From Pseudomonadota bacterium (GTDB lineage: Bacteria; Campylobacterota; Campylobacteria; Campylobacterales; Sulfurimonadaceae): DNA of 64,000 bases. The stretch is taken from assembly GCA_043797085.1 (NCBI GenBank), contig JAZDQA010000013.1, positions 160,001 to 224,000 of the forward strand. The letters are read 5' to 3'. The position numbers and the translations under genes are program-made. Below are positions 6,919 through 16,655 of this stretch, in pieces; the first letter of the stretch is position 1; each line of letters opens with the position of its first letter. The notes under the pieces are model-generated. The model saw only the letters and a list, made by a program, of their open reading frames with translations. It searched no databases and was not told the DNA's origin.

Positions 6919-7533
6919 ATGTTTACGGGATTAATTCGGGAAATGGGACAGGTAAAAAGCTTTGGAGCTAATCGCCTCTCTCTTAAGACATCTCATAAAG
7001 CAAAACTCGGAGACTCAATCGCCATCAACGGCACGTGTCTCTCCGTCGTAAGCATCGAGAGTGACGGATTTACCGTTGAGCTCTCCCCCGAAACACTCTC
7101 TCACGTTGCAACCGAAAAACTCACAGGAAACGTCCACATCGAACCTGCTATGATGATGGGCGATCGCTTCGAAGGGCACATCGTCCAAGGACATATCGAT
7201 ACCATCGGAACCATTGAGTCTATCACCAACAACGGCAACAGTTACGATGTCATCATCAAAATCGATCCTGAATTCATCCCTCTCATCCCCCCTAAAGGCT
7301 CTATTACCATCGATGGAGTGAGCCTAACGGTAAATGATGTACTAAAAGATACATTTCGTCTCACCATCATCCCTGTCACGATGAGAGAAACTCTTTTTGG
7401 AACGTATAAAAAAGGGACACGGGTCAATATCGAAACCGATGTTTTTGCCCGCTATATGCGACATATTCTCACGACATCCAGTAAAAAAGATCTGAGCTGG
7501 AATGATATTGACCATATCCATTCATTGTATTAA
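6919..7533 (+). CDS. ribE: Riboflavin synthase (alpha chain)
   Basis: N-terminal MFTG, GDSIAINGTCL, GHIVQGHID, IDGVSLTV. Confidence 0.95.
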   Translation: MFTGLIREMGQVKSFGANRLSLKTSHKAKLGDSIAINGTCLSVVSIESDGFTVELSPETLSHVATEKLTGNVHIEPAMMMGDRFEGHIVQGHIDTIGTIESITNNGNSYDVIIKIDPEFIPLIPPKGSITIDGVSLTVNDVLKDTFRLTIIPVTMRETLFGTYKKGTRVNIETDVFARYMRHILTTSSKKDLSWNDIDHIHSLY

Positions 7534-7544
7534 AAGGAAGAATT

Positions 7545-7850
7545 TTGAAAACAATTGAACTCATAATGATGCTCGCATTTGCCGGCGGACTTGTCCTGAC
7601 ACTCTATAAGGTATATCTCTTTCTCCCGCAAAAACCTCTTGAAGACGATGATACTACTTCCAGTTCCATTGAAGCGCTCGAAAAAATCATGGTTGAATCT
7701 AACCGTGATGGCATAACCGAAGAAGAGCTATTTGAAAAGATGCGTAACCATCCCGAGTTTGACACGAAACATTTTTGGAGATTTAACCCCAACCGCCTTC
7801 GCCACCTCATCGACAACTATCGCCTTAAAGAACCAAATTTTCGTCGCTAA
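7545..7850 (+). CDS. Membrane-anchored hypothetical protein
   Basis: AAAGGA RBS, TTG start, N-terminal TM helix. Confidence 0.7.
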   Translation: MKTIELIMMLAFAGGLVLTLYKVYLFLPQKPLEDDDTTSSSIEALEKIMVESNRDGITEEELFEKMRNHPEFDTKHFWRFNPNRLRHLIDNYRLKEPNFRR

Positions 7851-8568
7851 GAGATGTTGCATTTGGATTACACGTAATCTTATGCTCCATGTCTACTTTC
7901 TCATAATTCTCCAACTCTCTCACGGATGCAACGGTCGCCGTACGATATCCCTCACCCTGATTCAAATAAATATTAAACCCATTTTCATAAAGAGCCAACC
8001 GTGTTGCTAACGCCATTGAGTAGGTGGTCACAATCCCCTCATTCCCCATCAGTCGTGCGATATCAGCAAAATACTCACGAGTCCAAAGCGCTGGGTTACT
8101 AGAGGGGCTAAATGCATCTTGATAACAGACATCCCATACCCCATCTAACTCTCTCATCGCAACCCGTGCATCGGTAATCTCAACCGTAATACGAGTCCGT
8201 TCATCCTCATATTGTCCACCAACAGCAAGCTCTGTAATCACCTTTTTGTATGGTTCAAAGATTTCAGGATAAGGAAAATCTATCAAAGAAGCAACCAGCG
8301 CACCATCCAATTCGGGAGAATAAATTTTCAGCGTCATATTAGGAAAATATCTATCACGATAATATAGGCTAAGAAGAGTATTAAAACCAAGCCCGAAACA
8401 AATATCGATGATTTTGAGATTATTTTTTTCGCGATGGAGCACAAAAGCAGGCTCAATGTGTTTTTTGAGTGATTCGTTTAACGCTCCATCTTTGGTCGAG
8501 TGGTAGTGCTCATCGTATTCGCTGCTGTATGCCGTATAGCTCCCATCTTCGCTCTCAACCCAGTTCAT
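7825..8568 (-). CDS. mnmD: Stand-alone MnmC-type tRNA mnm5s2U34 methyltransferase domain (MnmD/DUF752)
   Basis: EDGSYTAYS..YDEHYHS..GALNES, DICFGLGFN, YQDAFSPSSNPALWT; start moved to ATG 8568 (TGATG overlap). Confidence 0.85.
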   Translation of the reverse strand: MNWVESEDGSYTAYSSEYDEHYHSTKDGALNESLKKHIEPAFVLHREKNNLKIIDICFGLGFNTLLSLYYRDRYFPNMTLKIYSPELDGALVASLIDFPYPEIFEPYKKVITELAVGGQYEDERTRITVEITDARVAMRELDGVWDVCYQDAFSPSSNPALWTREYFADIARLMGNEGIVTTYSMALATRLALYENGFNIYLNQGEGYRTATVASVRELENYEKVDMEHKITCNPNATSLSDENLVL

Positions 8569-9047
8569 CACAACCCTGCTCCCCACATGTGCAACTTCTT
8601 AGCCACAATAACCTCATACCCATCGATCAAATCGATAATCGCATTGATCGCTCGAAATTCGACCTGATCGAGGAGTGATTCGACCTCAGCAATACTCATC
8701 GAACCGTTTTTTTGGACGATAATAATCTCGGAAGCGTTGAGTAATGTGCGGTAAAGTAACTCTAAAAATTTGCGCGGTGATTCATGCAGATGCAACACAT
8801 CCTGCACGATAACAGCAGCGTAATCGCGTGGAACTCCCCCTGCGGGAGATTTATAATCTTTAATCATAAAGGTTTTATGAAAAGTGGTATGGGTTAGACT
8901 TTGATGATTCCCCGGAAAAAGTGAAAAATCGATCAACCCCTCATAAGAGATGAGAAAATCACCCAATTCCTCCGTCATAGCGTCCAAATGGCTTGTCGCT
9001 ACCATGATTTTCGTATGGGGTGTCGGATGGAGAAGTTGGGTAATCAT
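8568..9047 (-). CDS. Hypothetical protein, weakly class I methyltransferase-like
   Basis: YAAVIVQDVLH..PRKFLELLYRTL resembles the C-terminal half of SAM-MTases; no GxGxG motif; overlaps both neighbours. Confidence 0.55.
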   Translation of the reverse strand: MITQLLHPTPHTKIMVATSHLDAMTEELGDFLISYEGLIDFSLFPGNHQSLTHTTFHKTFMIKDYKSPAGGVPRDYAAVIVQDVLHLHESPRKFLELLYRTLLNASEIIIVQKNGSMSIAEVESLLDQVEFRAINAIIDLIDGYEVIVAKKLHMWGAGL

Positions 9048-9352
9048 AGTGCCAAATCGTGCAACTCGCGGAAAAGATACGCTTCAACAATATCATCAAT
9101 AGTACGTTGTGTATGAGCGACCAAAACCATCATCTGATGCTCGATAAACTCCATCACCGGCTCATAATTGCCCGTAATGATAACCGCATCAAGCCAACCG
9201 TCGATTTCACTGCGATCGGTATAAAATTTAATTTCGACCACTTGCCCTTCCTCAACCTCAACAGTCGCCCAGTAGGTTGCGGATAAAATTCCGACGAGTT
9301 CACTCTCTTGAGTATCATCGCCGTTCATCGGTAACAAAAGCAACATAATCAA
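9044..9352 (-). CDS. Small acidic protein, NifB/NifX-like fold (tentative)
   Basis: beta-strand-P start, [22 protein letters not shown]; start may be ATG 9346. Confidence 0.5.
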
Positions 9353-9852
9353 TCTACCTTTGAGAGATCAAGCTTCAGCGCTTCATTATCCATAATATCG
9401 ATGTCTTTTCGGAGCACTTCGGCAGCAATCGCTTTCGCATCTTCGAGGGAATGCATTGCACATGTTCCGCATTGGTAGAGGTTGAGTTCAGGAATATCAC
9501 TTTGTTTTTCAACGGCAATCACATCATGCATAGAGGCTTCCCACGCTTCAACCACTTCCTCTTCCGTAGGAGCACCGATAACGCTCATATAAAACCCAGT
9601 ACGGCAACCCATAGGAGAGAGATCGATAATCTCCGTTTTAGCTGAGTTAAGATGGTCACGCATAAAGCCTGCGAACAAATGCTCTAACGTATGAATCCCC
9701 TCTTGAGATAAGATTGCCTCATTCGGACGGCAAAAACGTAAATCAAAAACGGTAATATCATCCCCCTTTGGAGTTTTCATCCCCTTTGCGCGACGAACGG
9801 CAGGTGCGGGCATAATAGTGTGGTCTACGGTAAAGCTATCTAGTAATGGCAT
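9349..9852 (-). CDS. luxS: S-ribosylhomocysteine lyase (AI-2 synthase)
   Basis: [32 protein letters not shown]; start moved to ATG 9852 with AAGGA RBS. Confidence 0.98.
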
Positions 9853-9886
9853 GTGCATCCTTAAAAAATTTATTTTAGTTGAGGCA

Positions 9887-9920
9887 ATGGTAACATATTT
9901 CATCCTTGAGGCGCTATAAT
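9887..9920. promoter_or_regulatory. Divergent -10 boxes for luxS and the aldolase
   Basis: Minus strand TGtTACCAT (9887-9895); plus strand TATAAT (9915-9920) ahead of an AAGGA RBS. Confidence 0.5.
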
Positions 9921-9943
9921 TTGGCAATTAATTAAGGAATATT

Positions 9944-11122
9944 ATGAAAAGCCTCTTTGACGATTCCATCGCCACCCGATATCAAAACGATCCACTGGCA
10001 GTACGGGTCTACACCTCTCAATTACTGGGTCAAAACAAAGACTTAGTCTTGCATGGAGGGGGAAATACTTCCGTAAAAATCGATGGTGTACTGTACGTTA
10101 AAGGAAGCGGATGGAATCTCGACACCATTGAAAAAGAAGGATTTTCTCCCGTTGATTTAGCCACACTCATAGAGATGGCCTCTCGTGACACTCTAACTGA
10201 TACTCAAATGGTCAAAGAGCAACGCGCCGCAATGAGCGATCAAAGCTTTCCAAACCCTTCTATCGAAGCAATACTTCATGCCATCATCCCGTTCACCTTC
10301 GTCGATCACACTCATGCCGATGCCGTTGTCACTCTAAGCAATACCCCTAACGGAAAAGAAATACTCGAAGAGCTTTATGGTGAGAACATGGTTATTATTG
10401 ACTATGTGATGCCGGGATTTGAACTGGCACGTCATATTTATTTACAAACTTTAGATCTAAATTGGAAAAATATTGAGGGAATTATTTTACTCAATCACGG
10501 TGTCTTTACTTTTGATAATGATGCCAAAAAAGCATATGAAAAGATGATAACACTTGTCACAAAAGCTGAAGATTACTTACAACAAAATGTCACTTTTCTT
10601 TCTAATACGAGCAAGGGAAATATCGACGTGGAGATTATTCGGTCATTAGTTCACGAAGTCGGCGTACTGCGCGGGTGTGATATTTTTCCCATCTTTTTGG
10701 ATTCCGACCAAGCCAAAGCACTCAGCACTCGCCCCAATTTAGAGCGACTCATCAAACAAGGCGAACTCACCCCTGAACACGTCATTCGCATCAAGCCTTT
10801 TCCTGCTATTATTAATACCGATTGTGCAAAAGGGATAGAAATATTTAAAACCGAGTATCAGAATTATTTTGATAAAAACAGCAATGCTAACCATATCTGT
10901 CTCGATCTGGCTCCTCGCTATGCGATTGTTAAAGGATTGGGGGCAGTTGCGCTGGGTAAAGATGAGAAAGAGTCTCGAATCATCGCCGATATCGTAGAGC
11001 ATACCATTACTGCAATTTTAAGTGCCGAACAGCTTGGAGCATGGACGTCTCTTAGTCTTGCACAGATGTTTGAGATGGAGTATTGGGAATTAGAGCAAAT
11101 CAAATTAAAGAACGCCAAATGA
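9944..11122 (+). CDS. Class II aldolase/adducin family protein (aldolase part of RhaEW/YuxG-like proteins, no SDR domain)
   Basis: LVLHGGGNTSVK, VKGSG, PSIEAILH, DHTHADA, LLNHG, EYWELEQ. Confidence 0.9.
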   Translation: MKSLFDDSIATRYQNDPLAVRVYTSQLLGQNKDLVLHGGGNTSVKIDGVLYVKGSGWNLDTIEKEGFSPVDLATLIEMASRDTLTDTQMVKEQRAAMSDQSFPNPSIEAILHAIIPFTFVDHTHADAVVTLSNTPNGKEILEELYGENMVIIDYVMPGFELARHIYLQTLDLNWKNIEGIILLNHGVFTFDNDAKKAYEKMITLVTKAEDYLQQNVTFLSNTSKGNIDVEIIRSLVHEVGVLRGCDIFPIFLDSDQAKALSTRPNLERLIKQGELTPEHVIRIKPFPAIINTDCAKGIEIFKTEYQNYFDKNSNANHICLDLAPRYAIVKGLGAVALGKDEKESRIIADIVEHTITAILSAEQLGAWTSLSLAQMFEMEYWELEQIKLKNAK

Positions 11123-11208
11123 GCAAAGCCCATTCGGCTACGCTCGCCGCTATGGCACTAAAGCTTGCCTCTGTCGAGGCAGATTAAATTACTGTACAAA
11201 GGAAAAAA

Positions 11209-11514
11209 ATGAAAATAACCAAAAAAGTAACTTTTATCGCTAAAGAGGAGCATATTTCTACGGTCAAAAAACTTCTAGAAGACATGGTAGCCCCTTCACT
11301 CAAAGAGCCTGGCTGTCTCTTTTATTACATCTTCCAATCTCAAAACAACCCGAAGAAATTCTTTGCCGTTGAGTCATGGGAAAATAACGAAGCACTTGAG
11401 GGGCATAAGCACACGGAGCATTATGCATACTATAAATCGCACTATGAACCATTTGTTGAGAATAAGTATACAGAAGATTTGGAACTTTTAGATGAAGAGG
11501 TGTATGGGTTTTAA
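11209..11514 (+). CDS. ABM-family protein, LsrG-like (putative phospho-DPD isomerase) or quinol monooxygenase
   Basis: SLKEPGCLFY, F..VESW, ALEGHKHTEHY; AAAGGA RBS; context of lsrK and luxS. Confidence 0.75.
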   Translation: MKITKKVTFIAKEEHISTVKKLLEDMVAPSLKEPGCLFYYIFQSQNNPKKFFAVESWENNEALEGHKHTEHYAYYKSHYEPFVENKYTEDLELLDEEVYGF

Positions 11515-13043
11515 ACTCCCGGAGCCTTCCACATAGGTTCTAACGTACTGTCACGGACAAGCTCCATCTGTTTGGCATAAACTCGTACCCATTTCTCTTT
11601 AACTTCTTGATAGGCATGAAAATTGGATTGATTTGGTTCATAACAACGCTCTATTTTTACAATATTTTGACCTGCTTCGTCAAAGCTTTTATAAATCCCT
11701 GCACCTATCCCGCACGCCATCGCTACACCCAATGCGGTGGCTTCTTTTACCACAGGGACTTTTACTTCCAATCCCGTAACATCGGCTAAAATCTGTGACC
11801 ATAACGCTCCATTTGACGCACCGCTTGCGAAGGTAAGCTGCGTTGGGGAAACACCGCTAAAGGCTTTTATGTTGTCAAGATTGATGGCACTTACGATGCA
11901 CGCATTTTCTTCCAACGCTCGAAACATGGAACCGATATTGTATTTGCTGCTGTCTAATCCAAGCCCAATAAACGATGGTGATGCGTGTATCCACTCTCCA
12001 TACTTCATGCTGTCGCTAAAAACAGGGATAATTCCATACGAACCGACGGGAATCTGTGATGCTAACGCTTCGAGCTGCGCGTAGCTTTTACCGCCACCTA
12101 ACGCATCTCGAAACCATCGCATCACAAGACCTGTAAAAAAAGTAATTCCCTCTGCTTGACTCATATCACGTACAACATGAGGATTTACACGCAATAGCAT
12201 ATCTCCTGAAAGTACTGTGTCTGAGGGTATATTGACCACTTGCTGCCAAAAACTTCCCCCTAACACAACCGCATCACCCAACTTATTTGCCCGAAGTCCT
12301 GCCGTACCGATTTGAACGTCACCACCCCCCATAACTACCAGAGTTTCAGGGCTTAAACCTGTCTCGTTGGAGGCTTGAAGGCTTATTTTTCCTAGAATAT
12401 CACCGCTTTCCAAGATAGGCACAAACAAATCTTTTAATCCGCATTGGCTGAACTGTTGCTTATCCCAATCACGATTTTTGAGATTAAACGCCCCTGCCGT
12501 CCCTGCATTGGAAGGCTCACTTGCTAATTCCCCACTGAGTTTAAACAGTATCCAGTCACTTATCATCGTAAAATAAGTTGCTTTTTCATACAAAGACAGC
12601 TGATTGTTTTTTAACCATAAAAGTCTTGGAGCTGCAGAAAGAGCAAATGTTTGCCCGCTTGATTGATAGAATTCTCTTTCCATATCAGGGTACGTATTTT
12701 TTAGAGTGCCAACTTCTAATCCAGAGCGACTATCGACATTTGCTACACCCCAAAGCTCATTCTTATCCTTATCATAAACGATAACTCCCTCACGCATGCT
12801 CGAAGCGGATAGCGCAATTATCTCTTTAGCATTTATCCCTGCTTTTACAACAACTTCTTTTATGCATTGTTTTGCCAATTCCCATCCATGGATAAAATCA
12901 AAGCCCATCGACCCTGCAATATTCTCTGACGCAATATGATTCCATTCATGTTGTGCAATCTCGATTTGATTTCCCAGCGTATCAAAAATGACAGCACGGA
13001 CACTTCCGGTTCCTGCATCTATACTTAAAAGATATTGCTTCAT
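11511..13043 (-). CDS. lsrK: Autoinducer-2 kinase
   Basis: LsrK-specific motifs over the full length: DAGTGSVRAVIFD, SMREG, ANVD.R, GQT.ALSA.PRLLWL, PSNAGT, GGGDVQ, FWQQVVN, RVNPHV, FRALEENA, terminal WKAPG. Confidence 0.93.
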   Translation of the reverse strand: MKQYLLSIDAGTGSVRAVIFDTLGNQIEIAQHEWNHIASENIAGSMGFDFIHGWELAKQCIKEVVVKAGINAKEIIALSASSMREGVIVYDKDKNELWGVANVDSRSGLEVGTLKNTYPDMEREFYQSSGQTFALSAAPRLLWLKNNQLSLYEKATYFTMISDWILFKLSGELASEPSNAGTAGAFNLKNRDWDKQQFSQCGLKDLFVPILESGDILGKISLQASNETGLSPETLVVMGGGDVQIGTAGLRANKLGDAVVLGGSFWQQVVNIPSDTVLSGDMLLRVNPHVVRDMSQAEGITFFTGLVMRWFRDALGGGKSYAQLEALASQIPVGSYGIIPVFSDSMKYGEWIHASPSFIGLGLDSSKYNIGSMFRALEENACIVSAINLDNIKAFSGVSPTQLTFASGASNGALWSQILADVTGLEVKVPVVKEATALGVAMACGIGAGIYKSFDEAGQNIVKIERCYEPNQSNFHAYQEVKEKWVRVYAKQMELVRDSTLEPMWKAPGV

Positions 13044-13264
13044 TTCATCTCTTTCATATTCACATCAAATTTCAATGAACTATTTTTAGTATTTTTTTGA
13101 TCAATCGACTTGATTTCCACATTACAAATACTGTCTTTAAGATTTTCTGCAAGAATCAGTAATTCTTCATGAGTATCGCGTATTGCAATTCCACGTGCAG
13201 AACATCCGACGACTCCACGGTTATTATAGGTCATTCTGTACATATAGTTCATTATCCAATACAT
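13040..13264 (-). CDS. Small hypothetical protein coupled to lsrK
   Basis: 74-aa ORF with ATGA overlap on the lsrK start; TACCAT -10 about 9 nt upstream; no clear RBS. Confidence 0.45.
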   Translation of the reverse strand: MYWIMNYMYRMTYNNRGVVGCSARGIAIRDTHEELLILAENLKDSICNVEIKSIDQKNTKNSSLKFDVNMKEMK

Positions 13265-13304
13265 TTATTAGTAATGGTAAAGCAAAGAAGATTCCAAGGA
13301 TTGA

Positions 13305-13338
13305 ATAAAAAGAAAGTGCAAGCGTTAAAAGCGCTTGC
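13305..13338 (-). terminator. Intrinsic terminator
   Basis: GCAAGCG-N7-CGCTTGC (13318-13338) followed on the minus strand by ACTTTCTTTTT. Confidence 0.7.
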
Positions 13339-13398
13339 TGATTACGCTAAAAATGCATATGTTATTTATTTTAATTCGATTAATGTATTAGTGAAATG

Positions 13399-13425
13399 TT
13401 ATCGACAGTTCGTAAACTGATTTAA
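13399..13425 (-). promoter_or_regulatory. Sigma28 (FliA)-like promoter
   Basis: Minus strand TTAA-N15-GTCGATAA. Confidence 0.45.
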
Positions 13426-13452
13426 GAAATACTATTTGAGGAGGGAATAAGG

Positions 13453-13477
13453 ACAATCTCTCAAAAGAGAGAATTGT
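13453..13477 (-). terminator. Putative terminator of the por operon
   Basis: ACAAT-CTCTC-AAAA-GAGAG-A-ATTGT hairpin just after the porB stop; weak U tract. Confidence 0.55.
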
Positions 13478-13483
13478 GAAAAA

Positions 13484-14443
13484 TTATACGCGCGCTTCTT
13501 CACGACGTTGGAGCTGTTCCCATTTCAAATCGACACGTGTTTGCCACTCATCGATAAGATATTCGTATTGCTTAGTGAAAAGGTGTTTGAAACGCCCTTG
13601 AGCACCTAAATAATCACGAACCGGGATAATATTTTTCGGACGATACGTGATGTTTAACTCTGTACCGTTAATGATTTCATACAACGGGAATACCAAAGAA
13701 TCGGTAGCAAGATCGGTAATAGCGATCGTATCTTCCGGTGCAAATTTCCACTCAGTTGTACAGGCAGAGATAGCATTAATAAATACTGGACCCTCTGCTG
13801 CAAACCCTTTTTGAATTTTTGCGACCATGTCTTTCCATTTACTTGGAGAAACCTGAGCGACGTACGGAGCACCGTGTGCTGCCATGATCGCCATCATGTC
13901 TTTTTTATTGCGCTTTTCACCGTAGCTTACGCGTCCTGCAGGTGTTGTCGTAGCCGATGCACCGATTGGAGTTGAACTTGAGCGCTGTCCACCTGTGTTT
14001 GCATACACTTCATTGTCCAAACAAACGTACATCATGTTATGTCCGCGTTCAAAACAACCTGAAATCCATTGGAATCCGATGTCATAAGTCGCACCATCGC
14101 CACCAAACGCAACAAACTTAGGAGTGCGTTCTGGTTGCTTTAAGCGACCTTTGGTTTTAAGTGCTTTGTACATCGCTTCCGCACCGGCAACTGCAGAAGA
14201 ACCGTTTTCAAATCCGATGTGAATCCAAGATGCATCCCACGAAGTATACGGATAAACCGCCGTACATACTTCCAAACATCCCGTAGAAGCTGCAAGAATC
14301 AAGTCGTCATTTGTAGCATTAAGTACTTCGCGAACAATAATCGAGTGCGCACACCCTGGGCATAAAAGGTTAGCACCCTCAAAGCGATCCGCCGAAGTGG
14401 AAAACTCTTTAAGGTTTTTGATTTTTTTAATTTCTGACATCAT
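13484..14443 (-). CDS. porB: Pyruvate:ferredoxin oxidoreductase beta subunit
   Basis: LCPGC, TGCLEV, GGDGA, DNEVYANTGGQRS (TPP-binding). Confidence 0.95.
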   Translation of the reverse strand: MMSEIKKIKNLKEFSTSADRFEGANLLCPGCAHSIIVREVLNATNDDLILAASTGCLEVCTAVYPYTSWDASWIHIGFENGSSAVAGAEAMYKALKTKGRLKQPERTPKFVAFGGDGATYDIGFQWISGCFERGHNMMYVCLDNEVYANTGGQRSSSTPIGASATTTPAGRVSYGEKRNKKDMMAIMAAHGAPYVAQVSPSKWKDMVAKIQKGFAAEGPVFINAISACTTEWKFAPEDTIAITDLATDSLVFPLYEIINGTELNITYRPKNIIPVRDYLGAQGRFKHLFTKQYEYLIDEWQTRVDLKWEQLQRREEARV

Positions 14444-14450
14444 TCACCCC

Positions 14451-15671
14451 TTAGAAAAATGAAAGCTTCGGTCCACGAAGACCGATGTATTGTTGCAATG
14501 GTGTTGTAGGTTTTCCTGCATCCATATTTGCTTTAAGGTCATTGAAAATGCCCACTAAATGTGCTTTAGTCAAATCACGTCCACCCAATCCATAAATATA
14601 GTTGGTAAGAACTGCTTTGGTATCGGTATTGAAAAGTGAACCTGAAATTTCATTGAAAAGCATACCCATAGTTCCATGAGGACTAGAGCGATCCAGTGTT
14701 CCGATTGCTTTGACATCTTTTAGTACTGCAGCAAGTTGCTCCATTGGCCATGGACGGAAAACACGAATACCGACAACACCCGCTTTAATTCCGGTTGCAC
14801 GTAATTCATTGACAACTTCCATTGCAGTTTCAACCGATGTTCCCATACAAATAACTGCTATTTCAGCGTCATCCATCTGGTGAGTCTCGACTAAATTATA
14901 TCGGCGACCCGTTAATGCTTCAAAAGCATCAAAAGCTGCTTCTAATTTAGGAATAACCGCCGTCATAAGTGCATGCTGCTGACGTGCTTTGTGCTCAAAG
15001 TGCCAATCTTCTTCCGTTTGAACCCCATGAGTTACCGGATGGTCAAGGTCAAGCATATCATTCATAGGCTGGAATTCACCAACGAAGTTAAAACCTTGCT
15101 CATCGGTCATAGTGTGAACACCCTGAGCTGTATGAGAGGTCATAAACCCGTCTTGGTGAACCATTGCAGGAAGACGAACATCGTGATCTTCAGCAACTTT
15201 GAATGCAATAAAATTCAAATCGTACGCGTGCTGAGGGTTATACGCATCAAGCTGAATCCATCCGCTGTCGCGACCCATATACATATCGGAGTGATCGCCA
15301 TTAACGTTCAAGGGAGCACCGATAGCACGGTTAACAACATTAAGAATGATCGGAAGACGCATTCCAGATGCTGAGTACAATGTCTCAACCATCAAAGCAA
15401 AACCTTGTGATGACGTTGCTGTCGCAACACGACCGCCGGCAGCCGATGCACCAATACAACATGACATTGCACCATGTTCAGATTCAGTCATTACAAACTC
15501 ACCGTCAACATAAGCATTCGCGGCAAAACCAGCGTAATTTTCAACAATTGGAGTCGATGGAGTAATCGGGTATGCCGCTACAACATCCACTTGAACTTGG
15601 CGAAGCGCATGGCTCGCCGCCATATTACCATCCCAGACTTCGATGTCTCGTAGTTCCATAGTATCAGCCAT
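14451..15671 (-). CDS. porA: Pyruvate:ferredoxin oxidoreductase alpha subunit
   Basis: AYPITPST, ESEH, TATSSQG, YGLGGRD. Confidence 0.95.
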   Translation of the reverse strand: MADTMELRDIEVWDGNMAASHALRQVQVDVVAAYPITPSTPIVENYAGFAANAYVDGEFVMTESEHGAMSCCIGASAAGGRVATATSSQGFALMVETLYSASGMRLPIILNVVNRAIGAPLNVNGDHSDMYMGRDSGWIQLDAYNPQHAYDLNFIAFKVAEDHDVRLPAMVHQDGFMTSHTAQGVHTMTDEQGFNFVGEFQPMNDMLDLDHPVTHGVQTEEDWHFEHKARQQHALMTAVIPKLEAAFDAFEALTGRRYNLVETHQMDDAEIAVICMGTSVETAMEVVNELRATGIKAGVVGIRVFRPWPMEQLAAVLKDVKAIGTLDRSSPHGTMGMLFNEISGSLFNTDTKAVLTNYIYGLGGRDLTKAHLVGIFNDLKANMDAGKPTTPLQQYIGLRGPKLSFF

Positions 15672-16087
15672 TAGTCTTCCTCTACTTCTGTATCTTTTTC
15701 TTTTTTCTCTTTTTTAGGCCATTGGGCAAGTGCTTCATCTTCATCTTTTTGCTCAGGAAACATCAACAATGATTTCGGATTGGTTGGACATACTTCCACA
15801 CAAATTCCGCATCCTTTACAGTGATCAAAATCGATTCCGACCATCTTTTTATCGCGCGCAATAATCGACATGTCTGGACAATAAACCCAGCAAAACTGGC
15901 AATCAATACAATAGTCTTTGTTAAATAAAGGCTTTTCAATACGCCAATCCGCTACGCTTGCCGTAAACGAACTTGACTTCGAATATGCTCTGTCTTCTGG
16001 CAATGTTGTTGCAATGTTTTGTATCGCTCCATCAAATGTGCGAAGCATAGCGCCAATTTCAAATCCATCCCATCCTGCTTTTTCCAT
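15671..16087 (-). CDS. porD: Pyruvate:ferredoxin oxidoreductase delta subunit (2x4Fe-4S)
   Basis: CIDCQFCWVYCP and CKGCGICVEVCP. Confidence 0.95.
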   Translation of the reverse strand: MEKAGWDGFEIGAMLRTFDGAIQNIATTLPEDRAYSKSSSFTASVADWRIEKPLFNKDYCIDCQFCWVYCPDMSIIARDKKMVGIDFDHCKGCGICVEVCPTNPKSLLMFPEQKDEDEALAQWPKKEKKEKDTEVEED

Positions 16088-16097
16088 TCGGTGATCC

Positions 16098-16655
16098 TTA
16101 CTTTACTTCATCATAAGCGCGTTGAATCGCGATCATGTTGGCGTCAATTATTTTCTGAGGCAGTTTTTTCAATACACGAATCATGTTTTCTTTGAAAAAA
16201 TCCATTTCGTACATACCCGAAACCTTCATCAATGCGCCTAGCATTGGTGTATTGGGGATCGCTTTTCCGATTGTCTCTTGCGAAATTTTAATACAATCAA
16301 CGGTGTATACTTTTTTGCCTTCAAGCTTCGGCTGAGACGCAATAAGCTCTTGGGTACTCAAATGAGTCGTAATGATGTAAACCGTATCCGGCTTTTCAAA
16401 CGCCGTAAAATCAGCAACATAAACCAAAGCTGGATCAATTACCAAAACATAATCCGGAGCCATAAATTTTTCATGATTCATAATGACTTGATCATCTACA
16501 CGATTATACGCTGTCATCGCAGCACCACGTTTTGCAGAACCGTAGAACGCAAACGCCTGTACATGTTTTCCGGTGGTGGATACAACGTCCGCTAAACCTT
16601 TTGCACCCGTTACAGCACCTTGACCGGCGCGACTATGCCATCGAATTTCGAGCAT
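16098..16655 (-). CDS. porC: Pyruvate:ferredoxin oxidoreductase gamma subunit
   Basis: EIRWHSRAGQGAVT, FYGSAKRGA, PNTPMLGA. Confidence 0.93.
   Translation of the reverse strand: MLEIRWHSRAGQGAVTGAKGLADVVSTTGKHVQAFAFYGSAKRGAAMTAYNRVDDQVIMNHEKFMAPDYVLVIDPALVYVADFTAFEKPDTVYIITTHLSTQELIASQPKLEGKKVYTVDCIKISQETIGKAIPNTPMLGALMKVSGMYEMDFFKENMIRVLKKLPQKIIDANMIAIQRAYDEVK

Follow-up and report, generated by a model that had tools for sequence, protein, structure and literature searches.

The window analysed here, a stretch of 64,000 nucleotides from the genome of a member of the Sulfurimonadaceae (Campylobacterota), carries beside luxS a gene for a stand-alone class II aldolase-like protein of 392 amino acids, and this aldolase is tightly and specifically coupled, in genomes without LsrF, to the autoinducer-2 (AI-2) kinase LsrK and to a small protein of the ABM or cupin type. 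What appears new in the locus is a form of Lsr processing that would rely on a non-homologous enzyme and lacks uptake and regulatory parts; a literature search, by which subscription journals were largely uncovered, found no report that connects LsrK with a class II aldolase or a cupin and no description of LsrK in these bacteria. We put at about even the chances that the aldolase is a dedicated phospho-AI-2 enzyme, which would carry out the terminal cleavage of an LsrG-type product, its presumed substrate, to dihydroxyacetone phosphate (DHAP) and acetate.

AI-2, or 4,5-dihydroxy-2,3-pentanedione (DPD), is made by every LuxS-bearing bacterium, and the only intracellular fate of AI-2 known to us is the enterobacterial route through LsrK, LsrG and LsrF. 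As described in the review PMC8016206, LsrK makes phosphorylated DPD (P-DPD), LsrG isomerises it to 3-hydroxy-2,4-pentanedione-5-phosphate (P-HPD), the hydrate of which is P-TPO, and LsrF moves the acetyl group to coenzyme A (CoA), leaving DHAP. Owing to the strict co-occurrence, the operon structure and the apparently separate arrival of the stand-alone aldolase in lsr clusters of three lineages, the locus in the window offers a specific candidate, ready to be cloned, for a second terminal AI-2 step, and it opens to testing whether luxS has a metabolic rather than a communicative role in many bacteria.

Co-occurrence and linkage with LsrK in Campylobacterota

Among 301 Campylobacterota genomes, in which LsrK was scored over its cut-off and the aldolase family at E ≤ 1e-30, the two are found in an identical set of 34 genomes from eight families, with no discordant genome; the aldolase family occurs in none of the 267 genomes without LsrK. 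LuxS is present in all 34 LsrK genomes. LsrF reaches its cut-off in none of them, nor in any of the 121 genomes sampled from the window's own family or of the 17 LsrK-bearing Campylobacterales genomes outside it, and in the positive control for this search three of three actinobacterial LsrF genes scored over the cut-off.

Within the 121 Sulfurimonadaceae genomes the aldolase family is present in 83 and LsrK in 81, with both in 79 and neither in 36. The discordant genomes comprise four with the aldolase only and two with LsrK only; all six are assemblies of at least 210 contigs, and five have a completeness of 74–91%. Both genes lie at most 7 kb apart on one contig in 58 of the 79 genomes, the aldolases concerned being 53 short (stand-alone) forms, four fragments and one form fused to a short-chain dehydrogenase (SDR) domain. 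When only genomes with LsrK and a full-length short form are counted, 53 of 64 are linked, and in the other 11, all draft assemblies, the genes are on different contigs. Adjacency of the aldolase and lsrK was also seen in six further families of the order.

The genes keep company in several arrangements. The same-strand order ABM–aldolase–lsrK recurs in varied surroundings (loci L014, L015, L021 and L121, and L025 with an insertion), and an arrangement with luxS adjacent, an aldolase–ABM pair and an ABM–lsrK pair was found in L016, L017 and L023; luxS adjoins the aldolase also in L031. Of the other Campylobacterales loci read, 13 have an ABM gene along with the aldolase, and a cupin gene stands next to lsrK in L118 and L120. 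The insertion in L025 (genome G098, positions 8497–9933 of the locus) places a defence gene, an ApeA-like HEPN gene (ApeA_NTD1 and HEPN_Apea), and an ORF (open reading frame) of 166 amino acids between the aldolase and lsrK.

The genome of the window, which is 95.9% complete, was searched as a whole with profiles. It contains a single PF00596 gene, the window aldolase, and no gene of the PF01791/DeoC/LsrF family; the Pfs/MtnN nucleosidase is present, LsrK is the only FGGY-family kinase (the sole FGGY_N match), and neither MtnA (TIGR00512) nor MtnK (TIGR01767) gave a match. LsrR was likewise without a match, and the best LsrB score was 20.2 bits against a cut-off of 384. Judged by this gene content, the cell should be able to make DPD via Pfs and LuxS and to phosphorylate it, with none of the known importer, repressor and terminal enzyme; as MtnA, MtnK and any other FGGY kinase are missing, LsrK would be the only evident source of a phosphorylated substrate for the aldolase. 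The Escherichia coli genome built into the search as a control scored below the cut-off for LsrK, LsrF, LsrB and LsrR and above it for MtnK and MtnA; it evidently comes from a strain lacking the lsr operon and is thus no positive control for lsr, for which E. coli K-12 proteins and actinobacterial genomes served instead.

Anatomy and fold of the aldolase

The gene is an uninterrupted ORF in which PF00596 (Aldolase_II) matches residues 24–211 with 79.2 bits against a cut-off of 22.2, a match recovered also when the genome was searched in six frames. More than 100 close homologues share its length, so that it is a conserved gene, far beyond a chance ORF; the nearest of them carry Sulfuricurvum names in the source databases. 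The phosphate- and metal-binding motifs that the earlier note had reported as intact are all present: GGGNTS at residues 38–43, KGSG at 53–56, E108 and H112, H122-T123-H124, and N184-H185-G186. In an alignment of the window protein with ten other short forms and four fused forms from related genomes, G38–S43, K53–G56, E108, H112, H122–H124 and H185–G186 are invariant across the 15 rows, and N184 is replaced by histidine in two; E108, H122, H124, H185 and G38–S43 are unchanged in an alignment of 43 homologues as well. By analogy with FucA, the histidine and glutamate residues are presumably metal ligands and the glycine/serine loop presumably binds phosphate.

The best NCBIfam matches are models of "bifunctional aldolase/short-chain dehydrogenase" proteins, matched in their N-terminal part alone and all far below cut-off: NF006196 gave 425.9 bits against 831 over profile positions 1–401 of 657, and TIGR02632 (RhaD_aldol-ADH) gave 198.7 bits against 567.75, a distant similarity. 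The protein ends in ...EYWELEQIKLKNAK, seven residues past the EYWELEQ motif. Alignment bears out what had been noted about this end, namely that the bifunctional forms continue there into a dehydrogenase: all 11 short proteins stop 5–8 residues past EYWELEQ, and all four long ones enter a Rossmann-type SDR domain at that point. The 392-residue aldolase corresponds to the N-terminal half of the RhaEW/YuxG-type bifunctional aldolase/SDR proteins. LsrF (NF006081, 3-hydroxy-5-phosphonooxypentane-2,4-dione thiolase) is absent from the 15 NCBIfam families listed for the aldolase, which is at most an analogue of LsrF and not a member of its family, the folds being class II and DhnA/DeoC-type class I, respectively.

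An AlphaFold (AF2) model built from the 43-sequence alignment has a mean pLDDT (predicted local distance difference test) score of 95.1, and its residues ~1–219 form a class II aldolase fold. The VIA fold match to 3m4r has a Z score of 31.0 and a root mean square deviation of 1.5 over 203 residues; 3m4r, of unassigned function, is also the sole solved sequence relative found (E 1.9e-41, residues 11–215) and represents the N-domain. FucA, RhaD (1gt7), AraD and YgbL match residues about 11–220 with Z scores of 16–19; the structural matches thus include the YgbL decarboxylase family, and among them are also the DrdA structures 6btd and 6btg, remote at 17–18% identity. For residues 220–392, which carry the TP[D/E]HVIR and EYWELEQ motifs, no solved structure was found, and the best Z score in a fold search with the whole-protein model was 4.7, which was not taken as a sign of a new fold.

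Apparent repeated loss of the dehydrogenase half

A tree of 124 aldolase halves was computed with a quick IQ-TREE run (LG+G4, SH-aLRT support), from which the partial loci L058, L074, L094, L098, L107 and L111 were left out. All 15 Campylobacterales short forms fall into one clade (support 96) nested among fused forms that include Campylobacterales fused copies, the seven actinobacterial short forms make up a separate clade (97) nested among actinobacterial fused forms, and a Thioclava-like pair of short forms stands apart (99). Joining the Campylobacterales and actinobacterial short clades costs 100 log-likelihood units, with a p value of 0.0246 in the approximately unbiased test, which is weakened by the fact that the constrained group was defined after the tree was seen. 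All three short clades are found in lsr clusters, into which the short forms were recruited independently. From the tree, there seem to have been at least two losses of the SDR half, and probably three, all in lineages found inside lsr clusters.

The two larger short clades share a residue in the C-terminal domain. At position 278, in the invariant motif TP[D/E]HVIR, glutamate is found in 16 of 16 Campylobacterales and seven of seven actinobacterial short forms and aspartate in 78 of 80 fused forms. The use of E278 as a mark of all lsr-linked short forms was dropped, as the Thioclava-like clade has aspartate.

Short forms outside the phylum

When the family was reduced to 150 representatives at 50% identity, most were fused forms, and true short forms, ending just past EYWELEQ, were seen in sequences named Thioclava, Timonella and Ruania. 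These named records are not among the matches listed in a scan of species genomes, where the 80 loci listed comprise 77 fused forms, two short forms (L049 and L043) and one tailed form (L064). The tail in L064, of 140 residues, gave no match to the SDR query. It belongs to a third architecture, in which the aldolase half is followed by 135–190 residues without a Pfam domain and which resembles NF006197 (583 positions); its members (P0122, P0124, P0125, P0127, P0131, P0132, P0145 and L064) are scattered among the fused forms on the tree.

The short form in L049, from Georgenia sp., closes a complete operon with the same-strand order lsrA-lsrC-lsrD-lsrB-lsrR-lsrK-cupin-lsrF-short aldolase, in which LsrK (703 bits), LsrB (489 bits) and LsrF (462 bits) are all over their cut-offs. 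Among 251 Actinomycetales genomes LsrK exceeds its cut-off in three, and all three carry the lsrK-cupin-lsrF-short aldolase cluster. The idea of the earlier note that the aldolase may replace LsrF, for which consistent co-occurrence with lsrF at the same loci was named as a refutation, is therefore supported only in part: in Campylobacterota all 34 LsrK genomes have the aldolase and none has LsrF over its cut-off, and in Actinomycetales three of three have both at the same locus, as does L122. The aldolase turns up repeatedly in AI-2 processing clusters outside the enterobacteria and is not a simple either/or substitute for LsrF. In Actinomycetales LsrF and the aldolase are either parallel outlets, to acetyl-CoA and acetate, respectively, or the aldolase-like protein does another step.

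With the Thioclava-type short form as seed, a scan of metagenomes yielded four true short forms (L122–L125). L125 holds the aldolase, lsrK (788 bits) followed by an lsrR-like gene, and an lsrG-like gene (108 bits, 46% identical to E. coli LsrG); in L124 the aldolase comes directly after an lsrG-like gene (121 bits). On these two contigs, where the short form adjoins a near-canonical lsrG, lsrF was not found. In L123 an LsrK-like kinase (483 bits, below cut-off) precedes the aldolase, and in L122 the order is a xylulokinase-like FGGY kinase, lsrF (495 bits) and the aldolase. True or near LsrF-type thiolases beside short or fused aldolases, in genomes or contigs without LsrK, were observed in L122 (5592–9227), L064, L097, L113 and L075, and some of these loci also hold a xylulokinase-like FGGY kinase. 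Since such LsrF–aldolase pairs occur without LsrK, the role of LsrF extends beyond AI-2 processing, in company with aldolases of this family.

Fused paralogues

The fused forms of Campylobacterales, of 650–660 amino acids, reach the NF006196 cut-off, and the window aldolase is about 50% identical to them. They adjoin mtnK-mtnA in genomes G038, G087 and G091. In G091, which belongs to the window's genus, a short form lies at luxS/lsrK and a separate fused form of 656 amino acids at mtnK-mtnA, the clearest sign of a division that suggests different inputs for the short and fused copies. G099 has a fused form directly upstream of lsrK, and in G038 the aldolase is absent from an ABM–lsrK context that is otherwise identical (L018 compared with L015).

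The small ABM and cupin proteins

By sequence the window ABM protein is a generic member of its fold, and its context alone makes it a candidate P-DPD isomerase in the role of LsrG. The LsrG model NF007791 is its only NCBIfam match, with 33.3 bits against a cut-off of 135, and when the protein alone was compared with PDB sequences the best match was the uncharacterised PA3566 (49 bits), LsrG (2gff) following with an E value of 0.006. An earlier result with LsrG as the top PDB match was discarded as circular, the alignment used having contained E. coli LsrG itself. The positions aligned to E54, H65 and H70 of E. coli LsrG are unchanged in 13 ABM sequences.

Some genera have two ABM paralogues, one of ~95 amino acids by lsrK and one of ~98 by the aldolase (L016, 7856–8494; L017, 7191–8145; L023, 4729–5025 and 10878–11168), of which the window's genus retains the aldolase-side type only; other lineages have a cupin on the lsrK side (L019, L118, L120, L049). 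The paired ABMs, or the cupin at the lsrK side, suggest two small-protein steps rather than one.

The aldolase locus and its neighbours

The features of the locus are collected in Table 1. The luxS family match (NF002602) spans residues 26–191 of the listed ORF, and since it begins at residue 26 the true luxS start probably lies near 9852, which would leave an upstream region of ~90 bases shared with the divergent aldolase. The ABM gene follows 86 bases 3' of the aldolase on the same strand, and lsrK is convergent with it, their ends overlapping by 4 bases. Besides LuxS, ABM and LsrK, the neighbours include an MnmC2-like methyltransferase; Pfam and NCBIfam revealed no rhamnose, fucose or other sugar-catabolic gene among them, in agreement with the first reading of the sequence. 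Scans of positions 7500–13600 gave 14 promoter-like sites against 15.4 expected and six terminator-like sites against 4.6 expected, and were uninformative for operon structure.

Table 1. Positions, strands and profile evidence of features at the aldolase locus of the window
Feature	Position	Strand	Evidence
Small ORFs downstream of luxS	8568–9352	-	
Region noted together with the small ORFs	7825–8586	-	
luxS, S-ribosylhomocysteine lyase (makes DPD)	9349..9927	-	PF02664, 191.6 bits; NF002602, 298.5 bits against cut-off 197
Stand-alone class II aldolase-like protein, 392 aa	9944..11122	+	Uninterrupted ORF, PF00596
ABM-fold (ferredoxin-like) protein, 101 aa	11209..11514	+	PF03992, 57.8 bits
lsrK, autoinducer-2 (DPD) kinase, 510 aa	11511..13043	-	NF008187, 728.3 bits against cut-off 528, full length
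Pyruvate:ferredoxin oxidoreductase operon (four subunits)	13484–16655	-	

Directly 3' of luxS are two small ORFs (102 and 159 amino acids) without a Pfam or NCBIfam match. The same order after luxS was observed in L016, L017 and L031 (~100 and ~160–195 amino acids), and in L017 and L023, as in the window, the MnmC2-like S-adenosylmethionine (SAM)-dependent methyltransferase comes after the two small ORFs; luxS and these ORFs may form a conserved luxS operon with uncharacterised members. On the other side, a four-subunit pyruvate:ferredoxin oxidoreductase operon adjoins lsrK in the window and also in L016, L023, L024 and L031, so that the gene order joining the AI-2 module to an enzyme of acetyl-CoA/pyruvate metabolism is conserved in several genera.

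Proposed pathway and alternative explanations

In the pathway proposed here, Pfs and LuxS would release DPD during the recycling of S-adenosylhomocysteine, LsrK would phosphorylate it to P-DPD, and the ABM protein, or a cupin in other lineages, would isomerise P-DPD to P-HPD. The aldolase would then break the C3–C4 bond of P-HPD or its hydrate, giving a metal-stabilised DHAP enediolate and acetate. In structure P-HPD corresponds to 5-deoxyribulose-1-phosphate with a 4-oxo group, and 5-deoxyribulose-1-phosphate is what the fused relatives at mtnK-mtnA presumably act on; because P-HPD is already oxidised at C4, its cleavage would yield an acid and not an aldehyde, and the dehydrogenase half, which in the fused enzymes deals with an aldehyde or a hydroxyl, would for this reason be dispensable and open to loss. 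Terminal cleavage by the aldolase would explain why it travels with LsrK and a small isomerase-like protein and why it is the sole candidate for C–C cleavage in genomes without LsrF. For the wider picture of a stripped-down pathway with neither the Lsr importer nor LsrR, in which the ABM protein would be the isomerase, the balance of probability is likewise close to level. In this chemolithoautotroph the task of the module is most likely the salvage or detoxification of DPD made by the cell itself, and not the uptake of a signal, since importer and repressor are lacking and the locus includes luxS. Kept together without these parts, luxS, lsrK and the aldolase look like a recycling of a reactive by-product into DHAP.

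Several observations weigh against terminal cleavage by the aldolase. The genomes counted are related and not independent, so that the co-occurrence counts measure consistency and overstate the statistical weight. True LsrF and the short form share an operon in all three actinobacterial LsrK genomes, and again in L122; the short form need not, for that reason, be the C–C cleaving enzyme. Eight LsrK genomes of the family sample have a fused form only, which is unlinked in seven, and the short form is thus not indispensable for the LsrK pathway. The Thioclava-like short forms keep D278, and E278 is seen in seven rows of the tree set that belong to neither of the two lsr-linked short clades. The ABM protein, with its 33 bits against 135 and an uncharacterised best solved relative, is not specifically LsrG-like. 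Substrate and products of the short-type aldolase are those that we infer, and we know of no citable precedent for a hydrolytic retro-Claisen cleavage by an enzyme of the class II aldolase fold.

AraD and MtnB use this fold for steps that do not cleave C–C bonds, and the aldolase may accordingly belong to the phospho-AI-2 pathway and not be terminal in it, performing an isomerisation, epimerisation or (de)hydration of P-DPD or P-HPD. The cleavage would then fall to LsrF where it is present and to another enzyme or spontaneous chemistry in Campylobacterales. We hold such an auxiliary role to be unlikely, although it would suit the short forms beside true LsrF in three actinobacterial lsr operons and in L122, the occurrence of an epimerase, a dehydratase-type protein, a decarboxylase family and dioxygenases among the structural matches, and the many loci with two small proteins (two ABMs, or an ABM and a cupin), which suggest extra steps compared with the enterobacterial scheme. 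It would, however, leave the Campylobacterales with a kinase, one to three isomerase-like proteins and no C–C cleaving enzyme, given that LsrF is over its cut-off in no LsrK genome of the phylum sample and that the window's genome has no DeoC-family gene. In L124, moreover, the aldolase directly follows lsrG, the position of lsrF's neighbour in E. coli, and the characterised RhaEW relatives, according to PMC3870299, release DHAP. A retro-aldol cleavage of a reduced substrate is an improbable variant, in which an unlinked reductase would produce a deoxypentulose phosphate such as 5-deoxyribulose-1-phosphate and the aldolase would split it to DHAP and acetaldehyde. It needs no new chemistry, as class II aldolases cleave ketose-1-phosphates, and the nearest relatives (~50% identical) are fused forms at mtnK-mtnA with 5-deoxyribulose-1-phosphate or methylthioribulose-1-phosphate (MTRu-1-P) as the expected substrate; yet the Campylobacterales loci read share no conserved reductase gene, and three independent lineages have apparently lost the SDR half on lsr linkage, contrary to what would be expected if a reductase or aldehyde dehydrogenase were needed. 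The suggestion that an SDR acts in trans finds no support at the locus either. No SDR gene follows the aldolase.

The proximity to luxS and lsrK could also reflect a clustering of genes for SAM by-products, the aldolase being that of the DHAP shunt (DrdA/Ald2) for the by-products 5'-deoxyadenosine and methylthioadenosine. Fused relatives beside mtnK-mtnA in three Campylobacterales genomes, MtnA in the flanks of 31 of the 80 listed loci from other phyla and the DrdA structures among the fold matches fit this explanation, which we nevertheless regard as decidedly improbable: the window's genome has neither MtnA nor MtnK, G091 holds a separate fused copy for mtnK-mtnA and keeps its short copy at luxS/lsrK, and the aldolase family never occurs without LsrK in the phylum sample. 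An ordinary rhamnulose-1-phosphate or fuculose-1-phosphate aldolase, as implied by the automatic JGI name of the homologues ("rhamnose utilization protein RhaD") and the distant TIGR02632 similarity, is most improbable in a genome without rhamnulokinase or fuculokinase, where LsrK is the sole FGGY kinase, the neighbours are free of sugar-catabolic genes and the host lineage is, as we presume from the names of the nearest hits and from what is known of the genus, a sulfur-oxidising autotroph.

Terminal cleavage of P-HPD by the aldolase can be extended, tentatively and with a probability that we consider low, to the whole RhaEW family, whose "aldolase" half would be a metal-dependent C–C hydrolase (retro-Claisen) for 3-hydroxy-2,4-diketo-1-phosphates and not a retro-aldolase. 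In the fused enzymes the SDR would first oxidise C4 of rhamnulose-1-phosphate, 5-deoxyribulose-1-phosphate or MTRu-1-P, and the N-terminal half would then split the diketone into DHAP and a carboxylic acid; the stand-alone forms would be the same hydrolase without a dehydrogenase, unneeded because LsrK and the ABM or cupin isomerase would deliver the diketone P-HPD ready-made. In PMC3870299, neither DHAP nor lactate was formed by RhaEW without NAD+, which its authors read as a need of the dehydrogenase domain for aldolase activity; the NAD+ requirement reported there would fit oxidation as the first step. Should the family work in this way, the salvage of SAM by-products would have a third branch, fed by LuxS, that leads from S-ribosylhomocysteine via DPD to DHAP and acetate and runs without a quorum-sensing role in autotrophic Campylobacterales. 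Hydrolytic cleavage of P-HPD would be a new reaction type for the class II aldolase fold, and the mechanism of thousands of annotated "bifunctional aldolase/SDR" proteins would need a second look.

Comparison with known systems

With the Lsr system of E. coli and Salmonella the window shares a true LsrK, an ABM-fold protein in the position of LsrG and the expected end product DHAP, and in other lineages the short aldolase even stands inside complete lsrACDB-lsrR-lsrK operons. The window's genome differs in having no LsrF, LsrB or LsrR and in having luxS as part of the locus. LsrF is a CoA-dependent class I enzyme of the DhnA type, whereas the candidate in the window has the metal-dependent class II fold, and its C2 product is expected to be acetate in place of the acetyl-CoA of LsrF.

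Among proteins, the closest comparison is with RhaEW/YuxG, described in PMC3870299 as rhamnulose-1-phosphate aldolase joined to lactaldehyde dehydrogenase, whose N-terminal half aligns to the whole 392-residue protein and which has in common with it the extra C-terminal subdomain ending in EYWELEQxKL. The window protein lacks the SDR half, scores below the family cut-offs, has glutamate and not the aspartate of the bifunctional aldolase/SDR families at position 278, and is found in the context of lsrK and luxS rather than of rha or mtnK-mtnA genes; 3m4r covers its N-domain only. The DHAP shunt, or 5-deoxyribose salvage (MtnK/DrdK, MtnA/DrdI, Ald2/DrdA), follows the same logic, in which a SAM by-product is phosphorylated, isomerised and cleaved by an enzyme of the class II fold into DHAP and a C2 unit. 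Its substrates differ from P-HPD in the oxidation state of C4 only, and in the window the kinase is the FGGY-type LsrK and the candidate isomerase an ABM protein, or a cupin in other lineages.

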